Assembly: GCA_963781195.1 (NCBI GenBank)
Contig: CAWAEZ010000016.1
Location: 40,523 to 104,522 of the forward strand
Origin: an uncultured Alphaproteobacteria bacterium
GTDB taxonomy: Bacteria; Pseudomonadota; Alphaproteobacteria; Rhizobiales; Xanthobacteraceae
Length of the DNA: 64,000 nt
Direction: 5' to 3'
Shown here: in pieces, positions 7,570 through 54,530 of the stretch
Numbering within the stretch: the stretch's first letter is position 1
Layout of the letters: each line of letters opens with the position of its first letter
Program-made: the position numbers and the translations under genes
Notes under the pieces: generated by a model
What the model saw: only the letters and a program-made list of their open reading frames with translations
Told to the model about the DNA's origin: nothing
Databases searched by the model: none

Positions 7570-9108
7570 CTAGGCTTCGTCGGTAACCGTGAGGCCCAGC
7601 GTGTCGAGTTTGCGGTAGAGAGTGGAGCGTCCGATGCGCAGCCGACGGGCGACCTCGGACATCTGGTTGCGATAATGGGCAAGCGCGAAACGGATCACCT
7701 CGGCCTCGATCTCGTCGAGCGGCCGCGCGTGACCGCCATCGTCGACCAGGTTTAGAAGGTTGGGCGCCGGCAACGGGATCAGTCCCGCCACCTCGCCGCC
7801 GCCATCGCCGTCGCCGGCCTCGTCCCCGACACGAATCGCAGGAGCGGCTGCAGGCGACAGCGGCGCAAGGTCCGACGCCACGCCGGGCGGACCGGGCCAG
7901 GATTGCGCCCGCTCGCGGTCACCGGTCTGCGCGGCAATCTGCGGAAACTCGGGCAGGCCGATCTCCTCGCCTTCCGCGAGCACGACGGCACGAAAGATGG
8001 CGTTTTCCAATTGCCTTACATTGCCGGGCCAGCGATGGGACATCAGCAGGCACAGGGCATCCGCCGGCATGGAGCGGACCCGCTTGCCCTCCTCGGCGGC
8101 GAACCGGACCATGAAAAGGCGCGCGAGGGCCGGGATGTCCTCAGGGCGCTCGCGCAATGGCGGCACGGTGATCGGAAACACGTGCAGACGGTAGAACAGG
8201 TCTTCCCGGAAGCGTCCCGACTGGACATCGTCCTCGAGCATGCGGTTGGTGGCGGAGATCAGGCGGACATTGACCGGAACGGCGCGCTTGGCGCCGACCG
8301 GCTCGACTTCGCCCTCCTGGATCGCCCGCAGCAGCTTGACCTGCGCCGCCGGCGGCAGCTCGCCCACCTCATCGAGGAACAGGGTCCCTCCCGACGCCTC
8401 CTGAAACTTGCCCTCGTGGCGCTCGGTGGCGCCGGTGAAGGCGCCTTTCTCGTGGCCGAACAGGATCGACTCCACGAGATTCTCCGGCAGCGCCCCGCAA
8501 TTGACCGCCACGAAGGGCTTGGCGCGGCGCGGGCCCGAGCCATGGATCGCACGCGCTATCAGCTCCTTGCCGACCCCCGATTCGCCCTCGATGAGCACCG
8601 GGATCGTCGAGCCGGCGCTCTTCTGCGCCGCTTGCAGCGCGGCCCGCATCTTCGGGCTGCGGGTGACGATGTCCTTGAAGGTCAGGGTGCCGCCGCGGCT
8701 GTGCTTGAGCCGGGCGAGTTCGCCTTCCAGCGCCCGCGTCGCCAGCGCATTGCGCAGCGACACCTGCATGCGTTCGGGGCTGACGGGCTTGACGACGAAA
8801 TCGACGGCACCCGCCCGCATCGCCGACACCACGGAGTCGATGCCGCCATGGGCGGTCTGGACGATGACCGGGAGGTTCAGGCCGGCCCCCCGCATGCGGG
8901 CCAGCACGCCCAGGCCGTCGAGGTCCGGCATCACGAGATCGAGCACGACGCAGTCGACATGCGCCGCATCGGCGGCGGTCAACCGGGCCATGGCGCCCTC
9001 CCCGCCGTCCGCGGAGACCACGAGATAGCCGGCCCTTTCGACCATGTGCTGCAGCAGACGCCGCTGCACCGGGTCGTCGTCGACGATGAGGACGCGCTCG
9101 GCCATCGC
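7570..9108 (-). CDS. sigma-54-dependent response regulator (REC-AAA+-Fis HTH), no adjacent kinase
   Basis: Start taken at [11 protein letters not shown]. Has a GAFTGA loop ([10 protein letters not shown]), Walker A GESGVGKE and a C-terminal HTH ([11 protein letters not shown]). The upstream 47 codons of the ORF look non-coding. Confidence 0.85.
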
Positions 9109-42459: not shown

Positions 42460-42535
42460 GCCGCAATAGCTCAGTCGGTAGAGCACATCATTCGTAATGA
42501 TGGGGTCGGGGGTTCGAATCCCTCTTGCGGCACCA
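42460..42535 (+). tRNA. tRNA-Thr (anticodon CGU)
   Basis: 76 nt. Acceptor GCCGCAA/TTGCGGC, D-arm AGCTCAGTCGGTAGAGC, anticodon loop TTCGTAA, T-arm GGGGGTTCGAATCCCTC, and an encoded CCA. Confidence 0.9.
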
Positions 42536-42800
42536 GTGACTTAGTTGTTCGGCCCCATGGGTGCCGGATCGCACCTGCGACATGGGTGACAATCGCTCGG
42601 GACCGGTAGCACGTGCCTTGCCTGCGATCGGCCGACGCGGTCTGCTTGAACAGCGGAAAACTGGCGCGAAAGTCTTGGATAGCGTTTCCCTATTGCTCAG
42701 GTGCCGAATGCAGCCGGTGAAGCCCGCGCAACCAGCGGAGTAGGCCAACTAAACGCAAACCAGGCGCGTGCTCGATCTCGCATTTCAGCGGCCTGATGCT
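42491..42800 (+). repeat. direct repeat copy 1 (tRNA-Thr 3' 45 nt plus downstream flank)
   Basis: Aligns by eye at high identity with 49795-50275. Lacks a ~190-bp block that is present in copy 2. Confidence 0.85.
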
Positions 42801-43265
42801 CAACAAGGTGCTCGGCGCGTCGCCCACGCTGGTCCCGTTCAGCGGCGGAGCACCCGCCGTCAACGCGCTGGTCGGCGGCCAGGTCGACTACATGTGCGAG
42901 CCCATCTCGGAGATCGTCCAGCAGGGACAGGCCGGGACGATCAAAGTTTATGGCACCGGAATGCCGGAGCGTAGCCCGGCCCTGCCCCAGGTCCCGACGA
43001 CAAGCGAGGTCGGGCTCCCGGATTTCCAGGTGTCGGCCTGGTATGCGCTGTTTGCCCCGAAGGCGACGCCGAAAGCCTTGCTCGACGCGCTGAGCGGCGC
43101 CCTCGACAAGGCGCTCGATGACGACAAGGTCCGCCAACGTCTCGCCGACCTCGGCTGCAACATTCCGGCGAAATCGAAGCGGGGTCAGGGCGAGCTCGCC
43201 GCCCCGGTGAAAACGAGATCGCGCGCTGGTCGCCGATCATCCGGGCGGCCAGCGACAAGGGGTGA
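42796..43265 (+). pseudogene. Bug/TctC-family binding-protein fragment (5'-truncated, 1-nt deletion in an A-run near 43209)
   Basis: Only the C-terminal ~150 aa of a Bug protein is present (…ALPQVPTTSEVGLPDFQVSAWYALFAPKATP…). The conserved end NEIARWSPIIRAASDKG lies in another frame. Confidence 0.6.
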
Positions 43266-43356
43266 CGGTGGTGACGGCGCGGGCGCCATCGCATTGCGCC
43301 GCGCGGCTGGTTCAGTAAGACGGCGCGAGCTTGGCCGTCGCAAAGTCGTTGCGCGC

Positions 43357-44187
43357 CTAGGCATGTTGCAGCGCTTGCGCCTGTTGCCAGAGCCTGTTGA
43401 GGCCGTCGAACAGCTCCGTATGCAACCGCAGCCGCATCGTGGCGCTGCCGTCGGTGATGCCCGCTGCGCCGAGCAACTCTTCGCCGCGCTGACGCAGGCC
43501 CGGATAGTAGATCGAGAGGCAGGCGAGGTCGTGGACGGGGTCCGCGAGCTGCGAATATTCCCAATCCACCAGCATGGGGATCGGGCCGATGACATTGCCG
43601 GCGACAAGGTCGCCGTGGGTGGTGACCGGCTTGGCGGCGAAAGCGGCGCAATTCGCCGCGAGCTGCTCTGTGCGTTTGACGAGTGCATCGACCTGGCCGG
43701 CGGCGGCCGGATCGCGCTCGAGGATGGCCCGAGCAAATCCCATCGCGATGGATGCGGGATCGAACGCCGCAAAGCCCGCCGGCGGCGCCATGGCGTGCAG
43801 GCGCTGAAGGCAGGCGCCCAGGCTGCGCAAACCTTCGCACTCCTGCAGCCGCGGCGCGCTCCACATACCGCCCTCCACGTAATCCATCAAAATCCAGCTG
43901 CCGTCGGGCGCGGCATCGAGCACCGCCGGCGCCGCACCCGCAGCCGCGGCCGCGCGGTGGCATGCCACTTCGCGCAGCGCATCCGCCCCAGGTCGCGGCC
44001 CTTGCGAGATTCGCTGCCGCAACACGAATCGACCTGCACGCGTATCGATACGCAGGTTGCGATTGACCTTGCGGCCGCCATGCATCGCCTGGACGCACAC
44101 CGGCGCCTCGCCCCCGGCGCAACCGGGAATGCGCCGCAGGATCGATGCGGCGATCACGAGGTCTGGTGCCGGTATGTCTTCAGCCAT
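43357..44187 (-). CDS. choline/thiamine-kinase-like (APH-fold) phosphotransferase
   Basis: 276 aa with the Brenner motif THGDLVAGNV and LVDWEYS. Confidence 0.75.
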   Translation of the reverse strand: MAEDIPAPDLVIAASILRRIPGCAGGEAPVCVQAMHGGRKVNRNLRIDTRAGRFVLRQRISQGPRPGADALREVACHRAAAAAGAAPAVLDAAPDGSWILMDYVEGGMWSAPRLQECEGLRSLGACLQRLHAMAPPAGFAAFDPASIAMGFARAILERDPAAAGQVDALVKRTEQLAANCAAFAAKPVTTHGDLVAGNVIGPIPMLVDWEYSQLADPVHDLACLSIYYPGLRQRGEELLGAAGITDGSATMRLRLHTELFDGLNRLWQQAQALQHA

Positions 44188-44753
44188 TCAACGAAACCTA
44201 TGACGGCAGTGACAAGATAGATCAGGTACAGCAACGCCGTGAAAACCAATCCCTGAGCGGCATAGAGCCAGATCAGCACCGCATCGATGACGATCCAGTA
44301 TAGCCAGCTCTCAAGCTTGCCTCGGGCGGTGAGCCAGGAGGCAAAGAAGCTCAGCAGCGTCGTCGACGCATCGAGATAGGGCCAAGCCGCCTGCGTCTCC
44401 GCAGCCAGGAAATCCGCGATGACCGCAGCAAGCAACAGCGACGCTGCGATGCCTGCGACATGGCCGCGCCACGACAGCAGCGATATCCGCGTCGTTCCCT
44501 CGCGAGACCAGCGCACGAAGCCGAACACGGCGATACCGACGTACCAGACCTGGAGCAGCGACTGCATCGGCAATCGCGCGCGCGCAAACAGCCAGACGTA
44601 AATGAGGGAGCCGGCACCGCCGGCGACCCAGCACCAGCGGCTGCGCGGCACTGTCAGCACCACGTAGACGAGGCTCAAGAGCACGGCGAACGCTTCCAGC
44701 GGCGACGTCGCCAGCAGGGCGGTCCATAGTCGCGCCGTCAGGCCGTCGGGCAT
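44154..44753 (-). CDS. pnuC: PnuC-family nicotinamide-riboside/thiamine-type transporter
   Basis: 199 aa with 7 TM helices and PnuC-like W-rich motifs. Overlaps the kinase start by 34 nt. Confidence 0.85.
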   Translation of the reverse strand: MPDGLTARLWTALLATSPLEAFAVLLSLVYVVLTVPRSRWCWVAGGAGSLIYVWLFARARLPMQSLLQVWYVGIAVFGFVRWSREGTTRISLLSWRGHVAGIAASLLLAAVIADFLAAETQAAWPYLDASTTLLSFFASWLTARGKLESWLYWIVIDAVLIWLYAAQGLVFTALLYLIYLVTAVIGFVEWLKTYRHQTS

Positions 44754-44986
44754 AGCGCTGGTTCCGGGGATAAGGGACGAGAAGCGCCATCGCCATGGGG
44801 GCGATTTCCCCAGAGGGCGAGCACAAAGCGTGGAGGCTTATCGTAGTGTTATGGGGAGTGCTTGTCGCCGGGACCCGACGGCAGCTTCGGGCGCGGACTG
44901 CGCGGGCGACCGCTTCACCCAACTAGCGGACTTCGCCAAGACGCGGGGGTGTTCGTTTCGGGCCAGAAGCGGAAATTATCCAATCA

Positions 44987-45613
44987 CTAGTGCCGCGGTG
45001 GGGACCACGGAAGCGGTGGCGACCTACTCAAGAAATACGACAAGAACACCTGCTCACCTTCTTTGAAGGCGCAGACATACGTGATGGGAGTCGCTGGATG
45101 TACACCGAGAGCCAGCCAAAGAACAAGATTTGCGTCGTTGCGGTCCTGAAACCAAACGCCGCTTTGGGCGCCCAGCTTTTTGCTTATTTCTGAATGCCAA
45201 AAGGCAATGTCGTTGTAGCTATGGTAGAAAAGAGCTTCTATGACTTCCCCGTTGCGATATTGCTGATCGCCGAGATTGTCTTCGACACGGAACTTCACTC
45301 CGTACGGATAAGTGGGACCTACACGCGCAGCCACCAAGGTCATTTCTCCAACGAACCCCACTTTGAGCCGCGAGCAAGTCTTTGTGCCCGAAGGCAATTC
45401 AAACTCTTCGCCGTCCGGTGCGGTCGGCGACCACCAGTGGACGACGGCGTCTTGTACGAATCTTGGTCGAGAAGAATCCGAAAGATCGTTCATTGCATAA
45501 GCCCTTTTACTAGGCCCGGTCGCGCAAAATAGAACAATCAAGGCTACCCAGCGCGCAGAATGAGTTGACCCCTTCGCGAAACCCATCACCTTCGCTGGTG
45601 CGCTAAAAATCAC
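44987..45613 (-). CDS. secreted hypothetical protein
   Basis: 208-aa ORF in an AT-richer region with a signal-like start (ARWVALIVLFCATGPSKRAYA). No family recognised. Confidence 0.5.
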   Translation of the reverse strand: MIFSAPAKVMGFAKGSTHSARWVALIVLFCATGPSKRAYAMNDLSDSSRPRFVQDAVVHWWSPTAPDGEEFELPSGTKTCSRLKVGFVGEMTLVAARVGPTYPYGVKFRVEDNLGDQQYRNGEVIEALFYHSYNDIAFWHSEISKKLGAQSGVWFQDRNDANLVLWLALGVHPATPITYVCAFKEGEQVFLSYFLSRSPPLPWSPPRH

Positions 45614-45924
45614 CGATCGCGTTCCCTGTCCCTCGCTCTCAACAACTCGTTCGGTTTTAAGTCAATTTGAGATGCCTTGGAGAGCCACCGATCACGCTCA
45701 TGGTTGTACAACGGGCGAGCGTCACTCGGAGTAGGTCGAAAGGAATATCGTCAGCGCCAGCGCGGCTATCGCGACTGCCGCGGGCCGCAATGAACCACCA
45801 TCCGCTTCTCGTTCGCTGCATCAATTGGAGAATAACCCCTCAAGCGCCCTCGGCGATGCCGGCGCCGGAGGGCGCCGGGCGAAGATGTCGAGTTGGCGGG
45901 GATCGATCCGCAGCGACCGAAGCT

Positions 45925-47139
45925 TCACTTATCCAGATTCTCGGCCTTCAGCCACTCCGAGACGATGCGGAATACCTGCGCATTGTTCGTATCCGCCATC
46001 GGATGGTGCGTATTTCCGGACACGCCGGCCTCCGGGAGAACCACGTTCTTGACGTTGCCACCATACTTGGCGGCTACCGTGGCAAAACGCTTGTACGCTT
46101 CGACCCAGACGCGCCTGGTTTCCGGCGGGGTGCCGGCGTTTGCGGGGTCGAGCGCCTTGGGAATGAAGTCGCCCCAGATCAGCAGAATGGGATGTCGGGT
46201 GAGCTTCATGAATTCCTCCAGAGGGATTTCAGTCCCTGCGGGGACGAGCACACCATCAGCGCGCGGTATCGGGGGCGGCAGCTCCCCCACCGGGAAAACG
46301 GGAAAGGCGCTCGGTTCCCAGCCGATTTGGCCGGCAAGCGTGTTGGTCTTCCTGGGAACCAATAAACCGCGAGAATGACTCGAAGAATGGGTGTGAAGGA
46401 TCGCTCCTTTGCCGCGCTCCCGATAAAGCTCTTCGAGCAGAACGGCTAATGCCTCGCTCTCAATCTCGACGTTTTTCGGCGTGTTGAACTCGACATACTG
46501 ATTTCGGAGATACTGGTCCAACACCTTCGGATCTCGTGAGAAGGCCACCCCCGGAAAAAACTGCATGGCAGATTTCGGGGTATTCGGCGCCCACAATCCG
46601 ATGCGGTTCGTAAAAACGAACCGTGCCGAGAAGGTGTTGTTTACGGGACTCCACGTGTATTCCGAGCAGGCTTTGCCTGCTCGTCCGGTCCACGGCAAGT
46701 CGACCAGGTACACAGGATATTTTTCGCCCAGAAGTAGGCTCTGAAATCCGGGTTTACCGTCGAACGTCGTCTGGTACGTCCTGGTGCTGGAGCCATGGAC
46801 AAGCACCATCGGGTGCTCGCGCGCTCCAGTCGGGATGAACCACTCGACGAACCCGTGATCGCAGAGTTGAAAATTGGTCGGATCGTCGGGCATCGGTACT
46901 GCCGTCCCCCCGAATGCCCGCGCGCCCATGGACTCTATTTCGAGAACCTTGGGCTTACTGTCTTCCTGAGCAAAGGTGTCGGCACTTCTCAGCAGCGCCA
47001 ACACGAGTGCGACCGAAAAATAGCAAACGGTCCGCAAGAGTCGCCGGTCACGCACGCGCTGGCTCGAATGTGAAGTCCTGACTTCATGCAAATTGCACTT
47101 TGTGTCGCTGCATGGCCTTGGGCGTACTAATGTCTGCAT
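45925..47139 (-). CDS. secreted alpha/beta-fold hydrolase, paralog family of 7-1182
   Basis: Start at MQTLVRP; a later start is possible. Has PMVLVHGSS..T.DG and a C-terminal GNTHHPM. Confidence 0.7.
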   Translation of the reverse strand: MQTLVRPRPCSDTKCNLHEVRTSHSSQRVRDRRLLRTVCYFSVALVLALLRSADTFAQEDSKPKVLEIESMGARAFGGTAVPMPDDPTNFQLCDHGFVEWFIPTGAREHPMVLVHGSSTRTYQTTFDGKPGFQSLLLGEKYPVYLVDLPWTGRAGKACSEYTWSPVNNTFSARFVFTNRIGLWAPNTPKSAMQFFPGVAFSRDPKVLDQYLRNQYVEFNTPKNVEIESEALAVLLEELYRERGKGAILHTHSSSHSRGLLVPRKTNTLAGQIGWEPSAFPVFPVGELPPPIPRADGVLVPAGTEIPLEEFMKLTRHPILLIWGDFIPKALDPANAGTPPETRRVWVEAYKRFATVAAKYGGNVKNVVLPEAGVSGNTHHPMADTNNAQVFRIVSEWLKAENLDK

Positions 47140-47277
47140 GTTTCGCTTCTCCCTGATGGCGGCTTCGTGGCCCATTGGACCCCGCCGCCTCATCACCATC
47201 GTACACAGGCGAGCGCATGCAGCACAGTGAGCAGATGCCGCCCATCGATCCTCGTGGCATTGCGGCGTGAGATTCAA

Positions 47278-47574
47278 TCAGGCTGGTGGAGGCGCTTTCT
47301 TCCGCTTTGCGGGACGTGGCGCCCTCTTGGACGATCCGGGCGGGCGCACATATGGCGGCGGCGTGTGCCCCTCATATCTTTCGAGGACGCTCTCATACTT
47401 CACGCCCTGCTGACGCTCTGCGGGCGACATGGTGAGGCAGCCTGGCGCGGTCAGCATGACGCGGGGAGAACGCGCGCGGCATTGCGGGCACGCGGACGGC
47501 AGATCGCATTCCGCCATCGGTCGCAACTGTGTGAACGGCCCGCACTTCTTGCACATGTACTCGTACGTCGGCAT
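47278..47574 (-). CDS. FmdB-family zinc-ribbon protein
   Basis: MPTYEYMCKKCGPF...CPQC is the FmdB signature. Has a Lys/Pro-rich tail. Confidence 0.7.
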   Translation of the reverse strand: MPTYEYMCKKCGPFTQLRPMAECDLPSACPQCRARSPRVMLTAPGCLTMSPAERQQGVKYESVLERYEGHTPPPYVRPPGSSKRAPRPAKRKKAPPPA

Positions 47575-47639
47575 GTACCACCTATATCCGGGCAAGACAC
47601 AGCTGCGGCGGACCACTCCGTCGCGGTCAACTATACCAG

Positions 47640-47830
47640 CTGACGGACTGGGTTGTGAACGTCGTCGGTCACTTTCTGGCATGCCATCGTCGGTCGAATA
47701 CATCCGCGCCGGCAAGCTGCGTGCCCTAGCTGTGACCACGAAGACGCGCTCCCGAGGCTTTGACCGAGGTCCCAACGGCGGGTGATTCCGGGCCCGGCTT
47801 CGAGGCCAAGCCTCGATTTCTCCTGACGCA
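47640..47830 (+). pseudogene. internal fragment of a Bug/TctC-family gene
   Basis: Has …MPSSVEYIRAGKLRALAVTT.TRS, then EALTEVPTAGDSGPGFEA in a shifted frame. Confidence 0.4.
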
Positions 47831-48444
47831 GTAGCCGGCTCGAAAAAGTTTCACTTTATCGGCGATGGACGGATGATCGGCGCCAAGTGACTTACCACCC
47901 GCCACGGGCCAGGCGGCGCTGGCGCGCGGCGATGTAAAAAGTGTGCCCGCAATCCACAGGCCGGCACCTGAAAGATGCCAGAAACGGAACATTATCCGGA
48001 CGTCACCCGATGGCTGATTTTGCCGCGCAAGCAGGCCTGCTCCCTCATGGGCGGGGTAGGGCCGCGTAAGCAGGACGGCCCCAGGATGGCTGGCACCCTG
48101 GGGCACCCCGCAGCTCCGGAAATTGGTAGCACCGGCTCCAGAGGAGGATGCGGTTTGCAACGCCCTGACGAGATCCCGGTCCAGCGTGCGTGCAGTGATA
48201 CGTGATGAGCTCTGCTCTCTGCCCGTCAGCGGTGTCGTGTGCTGGCTGTTCCCCCCGACAGCGAGATGGGCGCCAGGCCGCCTCGCAAACTTCTCTAAAA
48301 TTGACGTTTTTCTTGTATGACAACGCTGCCGGATTTTGTCCAAGTGCGGCAGCAGCCGAAGTGATCGTGGGTGTTCCCGGCGCCGCAGCCCTGACGCTCT
48401 CCGGCGTCGTCGTTAGCAATCTTGTGTTTTGAGGGCTACGAACA

Positions 48445-48642
48445 GTGAACCACAAAAAATTCGATATCGCCCCTTTTGAACGGAAGCCCGGCGTCTGGCG
48501 CGCGAAAATAACTCGAGAAGATGGTTCTCCCATCGAACATGACGGGCTCAAGCGCCCTGAATTCGAGACCTCCGATGCGACAACCGCCGAGGAGGCCGAG
48601 CAGCTGGCTATCGATCAGATCGACGCAAAATGGTTTACTTGA
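48445..48642 (+). CDS. small hypothetical protein (65 aa)
   Basis: Balanced composition (FERKPGVWRAKITREDGSPIEHDG…AEEAEQLAIDQIDAKW). Confidence 0.45.
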   Translation: MNHKKFDIAPFERKPGVWRAKITREDGSPIEHDGLKRPEFETSDATTAEEAEQLAIDQIDAKWFT

Positions 48643-48705
48643 GGGGTCAGCCGCGGCGTGCGTGCTGGGGAGATCGACTGTCGAGCAGCGGAGGAGGATG
48701 GGCGC

Positions 48706-49077
48706 ATGAGGACTGGGTTCGTGCGATTCGCCAACATCGTCGCTGAGGCCTCAGGCTACCCTTCAGTGTTTTTCGTGGCTGTCTTGATCGTGGTCATATG
48801 GTTGACCACAGGGCCCATCTTCCACTTTTCGGACACTTGGCAGCTCGTCATGAACACCCTGACGAGCGTCATCACCTTCCTCATGGTCTTCTTGATCCAG
48901 ACCTCCCAAAACCGGGACAGCGCGGCGCTTCAGGCGAAGCTCGACGAGCTGATTAGAGTGGGAACCGCCCAAAACCTGTTTGTTGGACTGGAGCACTTGT
49001 CGCCCGAGGAGATCGCGGAGATACGGCGCGAACTGCACGGGCATTTGGAGCGTCGGCGAAAGCCGGCGGAGGGGTGA
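48706..49077 (+). CDS. low-affinity iron permease family protein
   Basis: Start at MRTGFVRFANIVAE. Has two TM helices and FLIQTSQNRDSAALQAKLDELI, typical of PF04120. Confidence 0.75.
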   Translation: MRTGFVRFANIVAEASGYPSVFFVAVLIVVIWLTTGPIFHFSDTWQLVMNTLTSVITFLMVFLIQTSQNRDSAALQAKLDELIRVGTAQNLFVGLEHLSPEEIAEIRRELHGHLERRRKPAEG

Positions 49078-49317
49078 GGCAGCGCGGTATGCCGCGCGGC
49101 TCCGCTTAGATCAAGGAGGTGGAGGCTTGACGCCCTGCCCATGCCCTTCGAGAGGCGGGACACTTTCGATTTTCCAGTTGCTGCACTCAAGGTGCGATGG
49201 GCGCAGCGCGGCCACGAGTTCGGAGCATCCATCGGACGTTGTCGATCGAGGAGGCTGGAGCGGTTTTGGGGCGTGTCGGTTAAGGCCCCAGTCGCCCTGG
49301 CGGGGAGCCATCGCCTA

Positions 49318-49539
49318 TCATGTGGTAGCGTACGATTCAAGAAATCCACAAGACGTGCATCGATAGGTCGTGACAGCCAGCTTTTGCTTGCCCTTGAACG
49401 TCACGCCTCCGAGCCAGTTCTTTTCCGGCGCACCCTCGATCCAACTCGGGACAAGGACGCCTCCGTAAGTGGCATCGGGAACAAATCCTAGTTCCATGCC
49501 ATGTTGGCATTTTGGGCATTTGGGGCTGCGCTGCAGCAT
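49318..49539 (-). CDS. small zinc-ribbon protein
   Basis: 73 aa with CPKC near the N-terminus and CTSC near the C-terminus. Confidence 0.5.
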   Translation of the reverse strand: MLQRSPKCPKCQHGMELGFVPDATYGGVLVPSWIEGAPEKNWLGGVTFKGKQKLAVTTYRCTSCGFLESYATT

Positions 49540-49794
49540 GGGTGCTGATCCTCAATTTTTCTCAGCGTAGGACGCGTCCACAACAAGCTCGAGCGCACCG
49601 AAGGCGACAGTCTACTCGTCGCGGTTACCTCCGGGTTGCAATCTCCTGTTTCGCTGCGCTTCGCTTCCGTTCACGCCGGTTCGACAGCGTGAAATACCTC
49701 GGTCTGTCACGGCCTTGGCGGTAGCGGTACAACACGTCACTCTGGCGTATTTGGGCTAACATTAGCCCACCGTTGAGACGACGCGAATTCGCGC

Positions 49795-49839
49795 TTCGTA
49801 ATGATGGGGTCGGGGGTTCGAATCCCTCTTGCGGCACCA
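49795..49839 (+). other. tRNA-Thr 3' fragment (anticodon loop to CCA), att-like
   Basis: Identical to 42491-42535. The upstream sequence is unrelated to the tRNA 5' half. Confidence 0.9.
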
Positions 49840-50275
49840 ATGACTTAGTTGTTCGGCCCGTTGGGTGCCGGATCGCACCTGAGACATGGGTGACAATCGC
49901 TCGGGGCCGGTAGCACGTGCCTTGCCTGCGATCGGCCGACGCGGTCTGCTTGAACAGCGGAACACACTGGCGCGAAGGTCTTGGATAGCGTTTCCCTGTT
50001 GCTCAGGTGCCGAATGCAGCCGGTGAAGCCCCGCAACCCGCGGCGTAGGCCAACTGCCTGTCGGCAACCCTAAATTTCCTCCGCGTTCCACCGCGGCCAC
50101 GTGCCCTTCTCCACTGACCATCCCCGATCACGCTCCTGGAGCACCAACCTTCTGGCACCTGCCTGTCCGCAGCACCTCGCTCAGATTTTCGCGCGCGGCC
50201 CGCTGTGAGTCTCCCAGCCGCGATCTGCCCAGGCTAAACGCAAACCAGGCGCGTGCGCGCAGTTTCACGGCTCAA
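49795..50275 (+). repeat. direct repeat copy 2 (includes a ~190-bp extra block about 50040-50230)
   Basis: See 42491-42800. Confidence 0.85.
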
Positions 50276-50322: not shown

Positions 50323-51600
50323 TCAACCGAACAATCCGAGTTTGGCCACAAGCTCAAGTTCCCGCGAGGCGAGGCGATCGCCGATATCCCTGCGATACCG
50401 CGCATTCGGAATGATCACCCGATCGGCGAGCTGGTTTGCGCGGTCGCGCGCGACTTGAACGGTGTCCCCGGTACCGGTGACGACCATGGTCCAGCCGAAC
50501 GCACCGCTCGTAACAAGCCGGCCGTCCTTCAAGCCGACCTCGCCATAATGAAGATGGCGCCTCTCGTCGGCCCCCACACGGTCGAAGACGATCGGCATGC
50601 CCACCGGTTCGTTAACGACATTCCGCCCATAGGGAAACGGCGGCGTCGTCATCACCAAACCGGCGGCGAATCCGGGACGCGTCTTCAGGGTCGCCGCGGT
50701 CCTCGTCACCAACCCATGGAATAACTCGCCCCAAGGCGTTTCCTGGAGCGGTTCGAGAATCGAATAGCCGGGATATCCAAAGCGGCAGGTAAACTCGAGC
50801 GGCCAGATGCCGCGTTCATTCACGATCGTGTTGAGATTGATGTAACCGCAATATCGCCCCTCCCTGAGAACGGGCGCCACACGTCCGAGCGTCAGCTCAT
50901 GGAAACGTGCGGTGCGTTCATAGGTGACGACCGTTCCCATCTCCCCGGTGAGTTCTCCCAGATCGCCGGGGAAAAAGCGCTTGTGCTCCCAATCCAGGCA
51001 TGAGGGCTCGAGAAACTCTTCGCCGTTGAAGTAGGCGCCGACCCCCATCTCGACGCCGTCGACATGCTCCATCAACACCACACTGTACAAATCATCCGTC
51101 AGGCCATCCAGAAACGCCCGCACGTCGGCCCCATCGTCGAGCCGTCCGACAAAGCTTTCCCGTGGACCGTTGAATTTTACGACGTAGCGTCCGGGATGGG
51201 TATAGAGAAAGCCCGACGCGCTGCGCGCGCTTTCAAACTCATGGCACTCACAAATCGAGAGGCCGAGCCCGCGGAGCACGTGCTGGCCGAATGCCCGGTC
51301 GTTCTCGAGCCGATCGCCGTAGGCACTGCCACCGATGACGTGAAGCCCGTGGCGCCGCAGGTCATCTTGAAGCGCGCCGCGTCCCTCTGCGGCGTTTTCG
51401 AAAATGATAATTCCTTGATCGCCCGCTTCACGAACCCACGCCATTTCATCGCGCCAATTTTCTGTGTGGGTCACAAGACCCGCGAGCGTGCCGGCGCAGA
51501 GCGGATTCGAGATGTAGACTTTGACTTCATGCCCCTCCTCGAGAAGGCGCATATACAGCGAACCCAGATCGCAATAGTCGCCAATCCCGAGGAAGCGCAT
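50323..51600 (-). CDS. PurD-like ATP-grasp ligase (not the housekeeping purD context)
   Basis: Start at MRFLGIGDY. PurD-like landmarks are present (GGSAYGDRLENDRAFG, VVKFNG, WEHKRFFPGDLGELTGEMG versus PurD DHKR..D.GPNTGGMG). Confidence 0.8.
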   Translation of the reverse strand: MRFLGIGDYCDLGSLYMRLLEEGHEVKVYISNPLCAGTLAGLVTHTENWRDEMAWVREAGDQGIIIFENAAEGRGALQDDLRRHGLHVIGGSAYGDRLENDRAFGQHVLRGLGLSICECHEFESARSASGFLYTHPGRYVVKFNGPRESFVGRLDDGADVRAFLDGLTDDLYSVVLMEHVDGVEMGVGAYFNGEEFLEPSCLDWEHKRFFPGDLGELTGEMGTVVTYERTARFHELTLGRVAPVLREGRYCGYINLNTIVNERGIWPLEFTCRFGYPGYSILEPLQETPWGELFHGLVTRTAATLKTRPGFAAGLVMTTPPFPYGRNVVNEPVGMPIVFDRVGADERRHLHYGEVGLKDGRLVTSGAFGWTMVVTGTGDTVQVARDRANQLADRVIIPNARYRRDIGDRLASRELELVAKLGLFG

Positions 51601-51610
51601 GCGGCCGCTG

Positions 51611-52528
51611 CTACGCGGCCATTTGAAGCGTGCGGCCGAGATCGAATTCACGTCGGTACCTGGCGAAGGTCCGCTCGCCGTGCCAAAGCCTCATGATCGC
51701 CCCCTCCCCGATCGCTTGGGCGCGGCGGGGATCTTCCCTTACCAGGGGGCGAAGGACCTCGCGGTTCCACGCTTCGGAGTGCTTCACGTCGAGCACGGCA
51801 TGAACGGCGAAGTAGTGTCGCTGTTTCGCAGAGATCCCGAGGCGTTTCAGCCCAGCGTTGACGTAGCCCGCGCGGGTCGGCGCCGTCATCTCGATGACGC
51901 CGAGCGCACCTATCGAATGGAACGCATACCGTCTGTGTCGGGCGAGCGCTATCATCGTGTTACCCAGCGCGAGCGCCTCCGGCACCACCGTTTCCGCCGT
52001 CGGCGAAAGTTCGAAATGATCGGAAAGTCGCGCCAGCATCGGGCCGTGCATACCCTTGCCGAAACCGCGCCCCATTTCATCCCAAAAGTTACGCGCCATT
52101 TCGAGCTTGGCTTGCGTACCGACTTTGATCTGAGTCAGAGCCAGCAAATCCTCAAAACCGGCTTCTCCCGCGACTTCCTGCAGCATGAACCAAGTCATCT
52201 GCTCCAGGTTCGCGCGCTCGGCCAGCCACGGAAACAGCGGATCGCCCTGACCGGGCCCGCGCTCCTTCAGGCGCTCGAACCAGTCGATAAAGCCCGTTTC
52301 ATCGGACGGAATGGCTTGCGTCATCGGCGTTATCCACTTTCGCATCCGTTCGATGAATGCGATTTCCGCGGCCGACACCCGCGCCTCTTTGAGCAGTTCG
52401 TCGGCCGCCGCCTCTTCCGGAAGACGGGGGTTGAAACGGTTGGCGTTGTAATTGGCGAGACCGATTTGGAATTCGGCGAAGCGCGGGCCGGTCAATTCAG
52501 CACGCCACCTCGTCCAGTCACGACTCAT
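51611..52528 (-). CDS. heme-oxygenase-like fold, iron-containing redox enzyme family protein (HDO-type)
   Basis: ATG at 52528 follows an AGGAG RBS. FWDEMGRGFGKGMHGPML and HYFAVHAVLDVKHSE resemble the paired E..H / D..H metal motifs of PF14518-type proteins. Confidence 0.7.
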   Translation of the reverse strand: MSRDWTRWRAELTGPRFAEFQIGLANYNANRFNPRLPEEAAADELLKEARVSAAEIAFIERMRKWITPMTQAIPSDETGFIDWFERLKERGPGQGDPLFPWLAERANLEQMTWFMLQEVAGEAGFEDLLALTQIKVGTQAKLEMARNFWDEMGRGFGKGMHGPMLARLSDHFELSPTAETVVPEALALGNTMIALARHRRYAFHSIGALGVIEMTAPTRAGYVNAGLKRLGISAKQRHYFAVHAVLDVKHSEAWNREVLRPLVREDPRRAQAIGEGAIMRLWHGERTFARYRREFDLGRTLQMAA

Positions 52529-52539
52529 GATCAGTCTCC

Positions 52540-53556
52540 TCAATCAACATCGATTGTAACCCCGACGACCGCCAGGCGATCTACGCGATCGTAAGGAGAG
52601 TGATCGAGCTCCTCGCCAAACACGTCGGGATCGATTTCTTCGTAGGCCACCCTCGCTCCGCGTCCCGCAACCGCGGACAGGAGGGCAGAACGGAACACGT
52701 CCGAGCCCTTTACGATGGCCGAACCGGTGTAGAGCACAAGCCGGCCCCCCGGAGCGAGATACGACAGGCCTTCTTTGGCGATACGCAACGAGAGCTCGGC
52801 ACCAAGGGCGCCGCCGCCGTGCCTGTAGGCGCGGGCCGTGGGATCGACCAGATAAGGCGGATTGGCGATAATGAGGTCGAACCGGCCTGAAAGGCACGCG
52901 AACAGATCGCTTTCGACGATCGTTACATCGGGGACTGCGTTGAGCGCCGCGTTGATGCGGCAGAATCGCAGCGCACCCCGATTGATGTCGGCCAAGGTGA
53001 TCCGCGGGCGGAACTGCGCTGCCCGCTCCGCCATATAAAGGCCGCCGGCTCCGCTGCCGGCGCCAACATCCAGGATCCTCGGCGAGTCGCAGCAGTCGCT
53101 CCGCGTGATCACGTCGCGGGTGGATTCGATGAACCGGGCGAAGCGGTAGGTATCCGGCCCAAAGAACACGGCATCGGACTGCTCGGTCGGAAACGAGGAA
53201 TGCACGAACAGCTGCCGGCCCAAGGTCGAAAATCGGATCTTGCTCTTCAGCTTGTCTCCCGCGCGTTCCACCATCCCCGCCTCGGTCAAACGCAGCAACT
53301 CGTTCGGCGCGATGTCGCTTCGGGAAAACGGCCGATTCCAGCCGAGAATATCCTCGATCGTCAAAGCGCCAAGATGGGGCCGCCGGTTGACCCTGGCATG
53401 GCTGGCCGGCGATATCGTGGTGAAACTGTAGCCCCGCCGTTTGAGGCGAAGCCCCAAATCGACAATCGCCTGATCGGCGCGATCAAGCGGTCCGCAAAGC
53501 TGCCCGTAAGGGGCGACGTCCGACGCAACCGCGCGACTTGTACCAACAACATCCAT
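52540..53556 (-). CDS. class I SAM-dependent methyltransferase with NPPY motif (PrmC/HemK-like N-methyltransferase fold)
   Basis: ILDVGAGSGAGG (motif I) and DLIIANPPY (motif IV), with a ~150-aa N-terminal extra domain. Confidence 0.85.
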   Translation of the reverse strand: MDVVGTSRAVASDVAPYGQLCGPLDRADQAIVDLGLRLKRRGYSFTTISPASHARVNRRPHLGALTIEDILGWNRPFSRSDIAPNELLRLTEAGMVERAGDKLKSKIRFSTLGRQLFVHSSFPTEQSDAVFFGPDTYRFARFIESTRDVITRSDCCDSPRILDVGAGSGAGGLYMAERAAQFRPRITLADINRGALRFCRINAALNAVPDVTIVESDLFACLSGRFDLIIANPPYLVDPTARAYRHGGGALGAELSLRIAKEGLSYLAPGGRLVLYTGSAIVKGSDVFRSALLSAVAGRGARVAYEEIDPDVFGEELDHSPYDRVDRLAVVGVTIDVD

Positions 53557-53699
53557 TTGAATGGGACCGCAGCTTTCAACCTCCTTTAAACGGCGCCGGT
53601 TGGGGAAGGTTCCACGGGTTCAAATTCGCCAGGGAACCGTGGTTCTTCCGGGCGCCGCGTGATCTTGCGTTCGGCTCGGCCGGTGCTTAGCATTCCTGC

Positions 53700-54071
53700 A
53701 TGCTTCTGATCAGAACGCGCGTCGGACCAAGTCGTATCCACGGGAACGGCGTCTTCGCGTGCGAGACGGTGGTTCGCGGAGCGGTTGTGTGGCGGTTCGA
53801 ACCTGCGTTCGATCGGGTGATCGCCGAAGCGGAATTGGCGACGACCCCGGCTTCCTTCCAGGAATATGTCCAGATGTACGCTTACGCTTCGGCAGACCTG
53901 GATGGTCGCCTTCTGCTTCCATGCGATCACGCCAAATTTCTCAATCACGCTGTGGACCCGAATACCGAAACTCTGCCGTTCAGGTCGGTGGCCAGCCGGC
54001 TGATCGAGGCGGGTGACGAAATCACCTGCGATTACGGCGCATTCTGTGTCGGCTGGACGGGATTCGACTGA
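53700..54071 (+). CDS. SET-domain protein (123 aa)
   Basis: GNGVFA, FLNHAVDPN (the NHSxxPN-like motif) and GDEITCDYG. Confidence 0.75.
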   Translation: MLLIRTRVGPSRIHGNGVFACETVVRGAVVWRFEPAFDRVIAEAELATTPASFQEYVQMYAYASADLDGRLLLPCDHAKFLNHAVDPNTETLPFRSVASRLIEAGDEITCDYGAFCVGWTGFD

Positions 54072-54110
54072 GAGCGCTCTATCCTCTGAACGCCCGAAAG
54101 GAAGTGGGTC

Positions 54111-54530
54111 GTGAATCGACAGCTGCCGCACCGCAACCTTTATACGCGGATCAAGGCATCGGCCAACGGCGTCGGCTTGTTCGCGATCCGCGACATTCCC
54201 AAGGGCACTAGATTATTCGTCGGCGACGTTGGTCAAACCGTAAGAATACCCGTACCAGATGTCGAGACGCTGGGTGATCCTGAGCTTCGGCAGATGTACC
54301 TGGATTTTTGCCCTGTCGTCGATAATCATTTTGTGGCGCCAATCGATTTCAATCAAATGACCATGAGCTGGTATTTAAATCATTCGGACGCGCCGAACGT
54401 CACGGCGCTTCGCGAGCTGCAATTCGTTACGTCGCGCGTGGTCGCAGCAGGTGAAGAACTGACGGTGGATTACACGGCCTTCAGCGATCATGCCTCAGGC
54501 TACGTTGCCGCTTGGCGCGACTGCAAATGA
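54111..54530 (+). CDS. SET-domain protein (139 aa)
   Basis: GVGLFAIRDIPKGT, YLNHSDAPN and GEELTVDYT. Uses a GTG start. Confidence 0.75.
   Translation: MNRQLPHRNLYTRIKASANGVGLFAIRDIPKGTRLFVGDVGQTVRIPVPDVETLGDPELRQMYLDFCPVVDNHFVAPIDFNQMTMSWYLNHSDAPNVTALRELQFVTSRVVAAGEELTVDYTAFSDHASGYVAAWRDCK

Follow-up and report, generated by a model that had tools for sequence, protein, structure and literature searches.

A widespread three-gene cassette of Alphaproteobacteria combining a methyltransferase, a heme-oxygenase-like diiron enzyme and an ATP-grasp ligase behind a σEcfG-type promoter motif

Five adjacent genes within a 64-kb stretch of DNA from an uncultured member of the Xanthobacteraceae (GenBank assembly GCA_963781195.1, contig CAWAEZ010000016.1; the whole stretch is referred to as the window) encode a methyltransferase, a heme-oxygenase-like diiron oxidase/oxygenase (HDO), an ATP-grasp ligase and two SET-domain proteins. 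This locus raises the question of which of the genes belong together, how they are controlled and what they produce. The original prediction, which was made from the letters alone, had treated all five as one locus without an assigned function. The analysis described here indicates a smaller unit: judged from sequence comparison, the three minus-strand genes are one operon of a widespread, uncharacterised cassette that occurs mainly in soil Alphaproteobacteria. All five open reading frames (ORFs) were recovered at the positions predicted for them, with the SET pair diverging from the three minus-strand genes. The features considered, in positions of the window, are the following:

52540-53556, minus strand: NPPY-motif N-methyltransferase with an N-terminal domain of its own, 338 aa, first gene of the cassette (Pfam MTS)
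51611-52528, minus strand: HDO, HrmI-like, 305 aa, middle gene of the cassette (PF14518)
50323-51600, minus strand: PurD-like ATP-grasp carboxylate-amine ligase, 425 aa, third gene of the cassette (Pfam and PDB matches)
53589-53613, minus strand: σEcfG-type promoter motif GGAAC-N16-CGTT, beginning 57 nt upstream of the methyltransferase start codon
53700-54071, plus strand: SET1, minimal SET-domain methyltransferase, 123 aa, divergent from the cassette (PF00856)
54111-54530, plus strand: SET2, second minimal SET-domain protein, 139 aa (PF00856)
49795-50053, resuming at 50234-50259, plus strand: 3' half of a tRNA-Thr with downstream DNA, a partial repeat that marks a variable hot spot (context only)

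The conserved unit

The HDO belongs to a large family, as a 90%-identity protein search returned at least 8,000 candidates, the top matches listed being 71-81% identical to the query. A scan of species-representative genomes, for which two peptide patterns only were used, confirmed at least 218 loci, and the best 80 of these 218 were kept. Within this set the carriers were mostly Alphaproteobacteria, namely Xanthobacteraceae, Pseudolabrys, Methyloceanibacter, Hyphomicrobium, Methylocystis and Bradyrhizobium, along with a few otherwise labelled metagenome-assembled genomes (MAGs); the nearest relatives were found in Pseudolabrys and in Xanthobacteraceae MAGs. Gene neighbourhoods were counted for the 62 loci in which the sequence extended far enough to either side of the HDO gene. 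The methyltransferase stood beside the HDO in 60 of the 62 loci and the PurD-like ligase in 55, and both were present in 54. In 50 of the 62 the order was methyltransferase, HDO, ligase on one strand, and the median intergenic gaps across the loci were 3 and 15 nt. The gaps in the window, predicted at about 10 nt, are 10 and 11 nt when starts supported by homologues are used. In an all-against-all clustering of about 1,400 neighbouring ORFs, no further family was represented in more than 10 loci, and the flanks of the cassette were otherwise unrelated between loci. Because adjacency of the triad recurs across loci while SET genes rarely adjoin it, the unit consists of three genes, and the five-gene unit assumed before has to be given up. 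Accidental island cargo had been expected to reveal itself by homologues that are never neighbours; for the triad the survey found the opposite.

Within the cassette, the methyltransferase and the HDO are, by their distribution in sequence data, the core. A natural fusion of the two (615 aa, with the MTS domain followed by PF14518) was found as five sequences on several metagenome contigs, and the fusion gene was always followed by a convergent PurD-like gene. On three Joint Genome Institute (JGI) metagenome contigs (L095-L097; fusion gene at 2041-3888 of L095), genes for a Rieske/ring-hydroxylating oxygenase and an amidohydrolase lie downstream. The methyltransferase family itself comprised at least 481 clusters at 50% identity (E <= 1e-30), the fusion protein among them, in a profile search of 1.84 billion representative proteins.

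Minor recurrent neighbours of the cassette were a DAO-Rieske oxidoreductase and an AI-2E transporter. The former, a FAD-dependent DAO-type oxidoreductase of about 520 aa with a C-terminal Rieske domain, adjoins the cassette in five loci (L010, L013, L018, L022 and L064) and may be an accessory amine oxidase or demethylase; in L013 its gene is inserted between those of ligase and HDO and has an EcfG-like motif of its own. Short ORFs within ±500 nt of the cassette were not conserved beyond single genera and provided no precursor-peptide candidate. A cluster of the type that modifies ribosomally synthesized peptides was rejected, as no conserved precursor ORF lies beside the enzymes. An anti-phage defence system was also rejected: PADLOC gave one partial, generic match to a methyltransferase domain (mad2, 75 bits) for the cassette methyltransferase and none for the other four proteins.

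The σEcfG-type motif and the SET genes

Most genes of the general-stress regulon of Alphaproteobacteria are still annotated as 'hypothetical'. The sigma factor of this response, EcfG, recognises the promoter motif GGAAC-N17-20-GTT, typically within 100 bp of the start codon (PMC6599016), which was taken as equivalent to GGAAC-N16/17-(C)GTT. In the window, the exact sequence GGAAC-N16-CGTT upstream of the methyltransferase gene is the sole exact match on both strands of the 64 kb. With at most one mismatch allowed, 38 of 73 regions upstream of the methyltransferase contained the motif across loci (binomial p ~2e-18); among random windows the rate was 10.7%, and among 730 other upstream regions it was 15%. 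Exact motifs were present in 7 of the 73 regions, compared to 1.5% of random windows and 4.1% of other upstream regions (p ~1e-4). In these motifs GGAAC was nearly always intact, with N16 and then [A/C/G]GTT on its 3' side.

The motif was also found to track the transcription units where the cassette has been rearranged (L010, L013, L029, L072, L077, L085, L086 and L088). It precedes the methyltransferase and, separately, the displaced HDO in L013, whereas in L010 it stands before the HDO and before a divergent pair of methyltransferase and ligase genes. Between the divergent ligase and methyltransferase genes of L077 lies an overlapping, palindromic pair of motifs, one per strand (8973-8999), which looks like a bidirectional stress promoter. 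Where a cyanophycin synthetase gene (cphA) takes part, the motif precedes the unit of HDO and cphA in L072 and that of methyltransferase, HDO and cphA in L029, and on the Sphingobium yanoikuyae plasmid pKN1 it is placed 64 nt upstream of cphA, the first of six genes, as the sole match in 14.8 kb. It further precedes the methyltransferase-HDO pair in Komagataeibacter and a lone HDO gene in Novosphingobium ES2-1. In the checked loci labelled as non-alphaproteobacterial no motif was found upstream of the cassette: two had no match at all (L084, L071), one had a match inside the HDO gene (L006), and two had single matches off the expected position (L047, L048). The neighbours of the cassette were often of types known from EcfG regulons, such as Ku, LigD, PRC-barrel and Hsp20 proteins, glycosidases and debranching enzymes. 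The cassette thus carries the promoter motif of the σEcfG regulon at the expected place, from which we infer that its expression would depend on EcfG. Among the papers searched, none joins 'iron-containing redox enzyme', the usual annotation of the HDO, with terms of the general stress response.

Neither a riboswitch nor an RNA leader was identified by Rfam searches of the window from 40 to 58 kb (E-value mode) and of 18 related loci, in which all matches were tRNAs, and a scan of the locus for σ70 promoters and terminators gave nothing above shuffled controls. On the minus strand, in the region 53557-53588, a perfect Shine-Dalgarno-like AAGGAGG directly follows the EcfG-type -10 element, 23 nt upstream of the methyltransferase ATG. 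A TTG beside it is out of frame, and the first 20 residues of the methyltransferase are poorly conserved and modelled with low confidence (low predicted local distance difference test score, pLDDT). Because of the distance of AAGGAGG from the ATG and the frame of the TTG, the true starts of transcription and translation remain uncertain.

The two SET genes were assigned correctly by the original prediction, with scores of 37.9 bits for SET1 and 42.1 bits for SET2 against PF00856 (cut-off 22.4). Both keep the NH and ExTxDY motifs, and N82-H83 and E107..D111-Y112 are conserved in the alignment, as far as can be judged from sequence. SET2 is 28% identical to SET1 and has its best PDB matches among the SET domains of KMT2C/D (E ~1e-4). 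An obligatory five-gene system including both SET proteins could be imagined from the divergent arrangement of the pair across an intergenic region of 143 nt and from SET1-type genes beside the cassette in two other loci: SET1 shares 56-57% identity with a SET gene that follows the triad in L017 and 37% with one convergent with the ligase gene on a Sphingomonas daechungensis plasmid (L092). However, SET genes (E <= 1e-5) occurred within 10 kb of the cassette in only 2 of 84 loci, L017 and, as a weak match, L081, and no SET2-type gene stood beside the triad in other loci. Moreover, no EcfG motif was found at the SET genes, and their G+C content is 0.57 compared to 0.616 for the triad. Such an obligatory system is therefore very improbable, the neighbourhood survey having largely refuted it. 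Independent cases of a SET gene beside the cassette number only three (the window, L017 and L092), and among 72,556 plasmid records only 15 had SET1-like genes. Pure chance is an unlikely source of three such cases in divergent lineages, which are at the same time far too rare for a core component. The SET genes are not part of the core; SET1-type genes may be a sporadic accessory, and for SET2 there is no evidence of a link to the cassette.

The three enzymes and the setting of the locus

The HDO was assigned to Haem_oxygenas_2 (PF14518) with 130 bits, in line with the family predicted for it. The check for diiron ligands that had been proposed was done by alignment to HrmI. The ligand candidates E151, H161, E213, H243, D247 and H250 are invariant among homologues and all six align with the matching His and carboxylate positions of HrmI, so that the full set of three His and three carboxylates is intact. 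Identity to HrmI is 31% over 217 aa (E 2.5e-28). With an AlphaFold2 model of the HDO (pLDDT 81.5), Foldseek returned HrmI first (template modelling, TM, score 0.71-0.78), followed by FlcD, RohS and SznF, with BesC, CADD and UndA lower. Placement of the enzyme in the N-oxygenase subgroup of HrmI, RohS and SznF is suggested by this similarity, and FlcD ranks there too. The protein is a single PF14518 domain without a cupin. As it has no C-terminal cupin domain, an N-nitrosating enzyme of the SznF type was rejected.

The methyltransferase matched Pfam MTS (PF05175) with 53.8 bits, as predicted, and its NPPY motif (N232-P233-P234-Y235) is invariant in 38 homologues. Only two proteins matched its AlphaFold2 model (pLDDT 86.4) over the whole length in Foldseek, namely GenN (TM 0.60/0.65) and AerE (TM 0.66/0.60), whereas RsmC and PrmC matched the core only. 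GenN, the gentamicin 3''-N-methyltransferase, and AerE, the aeronamide Asn N-methyltransferase, likewise have an N-terminal domain followed by an MTS Rossmann domain with an NPPY-type motif, at an identity to the window protein of only 17-18%. The fold does not decide the type of substrate, because an aminoglycoside amine and a peptide Asn amide are too different. Against the PrmC model (TIGR03534) the protein reached 66.7 bits, with a cut-off of 199.1, and matched over the Rossmann core residues 158-241 only. A PrmC/HemK release-factor glutamine methyltransferase was therefore rejected.

For the ligase the predicted family assignment held: GARS_A was found with 35.4 bits (cut-off 27), whereas GARS_C fell just short (34.3 bits, cut-off 34.8) and GARS_N gave no match. 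A PDB search with the sequence returned PurD structures only, with 2xcl as the best (E 2.9e-22). The ligase shares with PurD the ATP-grasp A and C domains and the DHKR-like and ExxxRFG motifs; its N-terminal loop differs, and no purine context surrounds it. The true PurE lies elsewhere, as had been stated, at about 38.78-39.0 kb of the window. Glycine is bound in PurD by Asp212, Arg287 and Glu292 (PMC8880213), to which E205, R273 and G278 of the ligase correspond, the Glu thus being lost. In addition, N285 and D290 of PurD are replaced by T271 and Y276, and all five of these ligase positions are invariant in 35 homologues. It follows that the carboxylate-activating machinery has been kept and the glycine pocket has not. 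The ligase scored 98.2 bits against NCBIfam purD (TIGR00877), far below the equivalog cut-off of 288, and together with the missing glycine-binding Glu this confirms that it is not the PurD of the purine pathway.

The position of the ligase in the cassette can be taken by other proteins. Seven informative loci lack a PurD-like gene, and what stands 3' of the HDO gene differs among them. In three of the seven, and in six loci of the whole set, the slot is occupied by a protein of 363-380 aa that has no Pfam match but, by profile, resembles the ATP-grasp domain of glutathione synthase and cyanophycin synthetase. Two others, L029 (Devosia) and L072 (Terricaulis), have a bona fide cyanophycin synthetase (1,101 bits, cut-off 850) after the HDO, and in the remaining two of the seven no ligase was identifiable. 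As judged from these replacements, the cassette ligase is interchangeable. Conversely, distant homologues of the PurD-like ligase (34-44% identity) occur without methyltransferase or HDO (a Roseomonas haemaphysalidis plasmid, L094, and H46 and H47), so that this ligase family has other partnerships. The Roseomonas homologue adjoins genes for a type III polyketide synthase, a methyltransferase and a FAD monooxygenase, and others of these homologues were seen on a Halarchaeum (archaeal) and a Chondrinema (Bacteroidota) plasmid.

Public records often name the ligase 'phosphoribosylamine--glycine ligase' and the methyltransferase 'release factor glutamine methyltransferase' or 'methylase of polypeptide subunit release factors'. 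Curated cut-offs support neither name, and both annotations should be corrected. The same names, together with the low-G+C stretch beside a tRNA repeat, could be read as signs of housekeeping paralogues (an additional PurD and an additional PrmC) or of accidental island cargo that shares no function. We regard this as extremely improbable, since both equivalog cut-offs are missed widely (98 vs 288 and 66.7 vs 199 bits), the glycine-binding residue of PurD is lost, and the triad is kept as a unit in dozens of unrelated contexts, with methyltransferase and HDO being fused in some.

With regard to the origin of the locus, the backbone has a G+C content of about 0.665, whereas the triad is at 0.616 and the SET genes are at 0.570, which bears out the predicted AT-richness; SET2 has the lowest value of the region (0.548). 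As the triad in other genomes lies only about 1.5 points under its flanks, its low G+C content in the window fits a relatively recent arrival. The second tRNA-Thr repeat that had been predicted about 50 bp from the locus is no second tRNA. The window contains a single tRNA-Thr(CGT) at 42460-42535 (ARAGORN), of which 49795-50053 is a 96% copy comprising the 3' 45 nt and about 215 nt of the DNA downstream. A 180-nt insertion (50054-50233) breaks the copy, which continues at 50234-50259. A partial repeat is thus present, and the ligase stop codon follows 63 nt past its last repeated block. The repeats bracket 42536-49794 (7.3 kb), and the cassette locus sits just outside this segment. No third tRNA-derived repeat was found within the 64-kb window and no integrase among the ORFs scanned in 42.8-49.5 kb and 55.4-58.6 kb. 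A tRNA-integrated genomic island was rejected, as the repeats do not flank the locus and the scanned ORFs include no integrase. A foreign origin is plausible from the low G+C content, 5-9 points under the backbone, and from the position beside the tRNA-Thr hot spot, and the horizontal acquisition proposed before likewise remains plausible in view of the unrelated contexts and plasmids on which the cassette occurs elsewhere. Adjacency to a tRNA was rejected as a trait of the family, since a tRNA lay within about 4 kb in only about 8 of 60 loci, and the tRNAs differed. The segment from 42460 to 50259 looks like a decayed or tandem integration site; the DNA between the repeat copies has a G+C content of 0.613 and encodes a TctC-like fragment, a PnuC-type nicotinamide mononucleotide transporter, a zinc-ribbon protein and a low-affinity iron permease.

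Proposed chemistry and comparison with known systems

The family assignments and the relatives of the enzymes leave a small-molecule pathway towards an N-methylated, oxidised product of the amino-acid type, as already considered in the original prediction, as the best reading. In the mechanism that we propose by analogy, the operon would be transcribed from the σEcfG-type promoter, and by virtue of this promoter would be turned on by the PhyR-NepR-σEcfG general stress response. The substrate would be an amino-acid-type small molecule rich in nitrogen, for which a relation to Arg or Asp is most likely. With S-adenosylmethionine (SAM), the NPPY methyltransferase would place a methyl group on an amine, amide or guanidino nitrogen; the diiron HDO would use O2 to oxygenate the methylated nitrogen or a neighbouring one, comparable to SznF acting on N-methyl-arginine; and the PurD-like ATP-grasp enzyme would convert a carboxylate via an acyl-phosphate into an amide bond, either building the substrate or ligating the modified product. 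No order is assigned to these steps. A stress-induced small-molecule cassette of SAM-dependent N-methylation, O2- and diiron-dependent N-oxygenation and ATP-grasp amide formation is given a probability of about 55%.

Hints to the substrate come from plasmids and other contexts. On plasmid pKN1 of S. yanoikuyae (L085, NZ_CP115457, 1313-9116), the genes for cyanophycin synthetase (cphA), isoaspartyl peptidase, cyanophycinase, methyltransferase, HDO and an SDF symporter of the sodium:dicarboxylate family form a six-gene unit in which gene ends overlap, and this arrangement, with the single motif upstream of cphA, suggests a stress-controlled cyanophycin metabolism tied to the methyltransferase-HDO pair. 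Similarly, the HDO gene of L072 is followed by cphA, isoaspartyl peptidase and cyanophycinase genes. Eleven Sphingobium plasmids had a match to the methyltransferase and none to the HDO, and the one inspected has a proton/glutamate symporter gene after the methyltransferase. A plasmid of Legionella sainthelensi (L087, NZ_CP025493, 5085-7858) encodes a 609-aa protein in which a DDAH/arginine-deiminase-like domain is joined to a full methyltransferase, followed by the HDO; the methyltransferase part is 38% identical to that of the window over residues 19-335. Genes for PRC-barrel, LigD and Ku proteins are located close by on this plasmid. In view of the cyanophycin operon, the symporters of the Glu/Asp type, the fusion to a DDAH/arginine-deiminase domain and the precedents of HrmI (lysine) and SznF (N-methyl-arginine), the substrate would most plausibly be nitrogen-rich, of the amino-acid type and related to Arg or Asp.

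The same contexts can be read in the direction of breakdown, with the cassette handling a nitrogen-rich compound freed under stress, such as arginine or methylated guanidines from cyanophycin degradation. Cyanophycinase and isoaspartyl peptidase genes around the cassette in pKN1 and L072, an adjoining symporter of the uptake type, the DAO-FAD/Rieske oxidoreductase beside five loci and the DDAH-like hydrolase domain fused to the methyltransferase in Legionella would all agree with a catabolic or detoxifying role. However, a pathway that spends both SAM and ATP would be atypical for catabolism, an ATP-grasp ligase makes bonds rather than breaking them, and the anabolic cyanophycin synthetase shares the units. 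We therefore consider such a role unlikely.

Foremost among the alternatives, and nevertheless improbable in our estimate, is the modification of a protein or peptide, which the original prediction had also raised. Here, the methyltransferase would act on a Gln, Asn, Arg or Lys side chain of a conserved protein (ribosomal or a translation factor) or of cyanophycin, the ATP-grasp enzyme would add an amino acid in the manner of RimK, the HDO would oxidise a residue and the SET proteins would methylate lysine, so that the target is remodelled under stress. By family the methyltransferase is of the HemK/PrmC-like NPPY group, and the peptide methyltransferase AerE matches its fold as well as GenN does. 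SET1-type genes, although rare, recur beside the cassette in three loci that are divergent. The cassette is very highly conserved in sequence, lacks a transporter and is linked to a cyanophycin operon. On the other hand, PurD and the nearest HDO relatives HrmI, RohS and SznF act on free small molecules, and the ligase is replaceable by unrelated amino-acid ligases. The other recurrent partners are amino-acid symporters and a DDAH/arginine-deiminase-like domain, no precursor ORF is conserved, and more than 95% of the loci have no SET genes.

Several points weigh against the proposed small-molecule pathway itself. The chemistry is assigned wholly by analogy. HDOs with near-identical ligands run very different reactions (PMC13108848), so that N-oxygenation by the present enzyme is not assured, and in the ligase T271 replaces the Mg-binding Asn of PurD. 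For secondary metabolism it is unusual that the sequences are so highly conserved and that neither a transporter nor a regulator is dedicated to the pathway; both features would fit a macromolecular substrate too. The HDO occurs alone on several sphingomonad plasmids and the methyltransferase without an HDO on Sphingobium plasmids, indicating that the two steps are separable and not obligatorily coupled. Finally, many loci stem from MAGs, the taxonomic labels of which may be wrong, and the motif counts include related genomes, which are not independent events.

A more specific version of the small-molecule pathway can be put forward tentatively. In soil Alphaproteobacteria and on plasmids of sphingomonads, acetic acid bacteria and Legionella, a stress-controlled pathway might yield an undescribed N-methylated and N-oxygenated metabolite of the N-hydroxyguanidine, hydroxamate or nitro type, derived from Arg or Asp or tied to cyanophycin nitrogen stores, with a core of methyltransferase and HDO, interchangeable amide ligases and an occasional SET protein. 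Such a metabolite could serve as a protectant, a metal ligand or a donor of nitric oxide or nitroxyl in dormancy. If the link to σEcfG holds, the general stress response would gain a dedicated small-molecule pathway with unusual N-oxidation chemistry. As the cassette comprises just three genes and is present in cultured Methylocystis and Bradyrhizobium, for example M. rosea SV97 and B. japonicum SZCCT0148, its chemistry and physiology are directly accessible.

Among solved structures, HrmI is nearest to the HDO in sequence as well as in fold, and like BelK it is an L-lysine N6-oxygenase producing 6-nitronorleucine; at 31% identity the substrate of the window enzyme may differ. The hormaomycin and belactosin pathways, to which these enzymes belong, pair the HDO with an iron/2-oxoglutarate-dependent cyclopropanase and are not known to combine it with a methyltransferase and an ATP-grasp ligase. 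A reaction is known for only about 12 HDOs (PMC13108848), and a large family with a fixed, minimal enzymatic context represents a well-defined target for HDO enzymology. HDOs beside ATP-grasp amino-acid ligases, as found here, are represented by the mangotoxin mbo cluster, in which MboA is a desaturase/acetylenase, and by other mined clusters. In the main text and examined supplements of the source describing these (PMC13185094), 1,447 HDOs are given as co-located with ATP-grasp ligases in about 25 cluster types, with the SznF cluster cited among such combinations; no methyltransferase is mentioned in them, and the triad is neither named nor characterised.

No characterised system with this combination of genes was found in the literature, as the original prediction had supposed, and the papers searched included none on the triad and none tying it to EcfG regulons. 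A close parallel is the streptozotocin pathway, which likewise comprises an N-methyltransferase (SznE), an HDO N-oxygenase (SznF) and ATP-grasp ligases and acts on a substrate of the arginine type. The methyltransferase-HDO pair would parallel SznE and SznF, the methyltransferase being likened to SznE by its role and not by its sequence. In structure SznF ranks high among the neighbours of the window HDO, yet it is only 14-17% identical in the Foldseek alignments, and it has a C-terminal cupin and a site of three His and four carboxylates, whereas the window enzyme is a stand-alone domain of 305 aa. Streptozotocin is made by a Streptomyces antibiotic cluster, whereas the present genes, with a PurD-like ligase, are a putative three-gene unit of a stress regulon in Alphaproteobacteria. 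The conserved combination, the interchangeable ligase, the fusion of methyltransferase and HDO and the association with σEcfG appear to be new, while the parts belong to known families.

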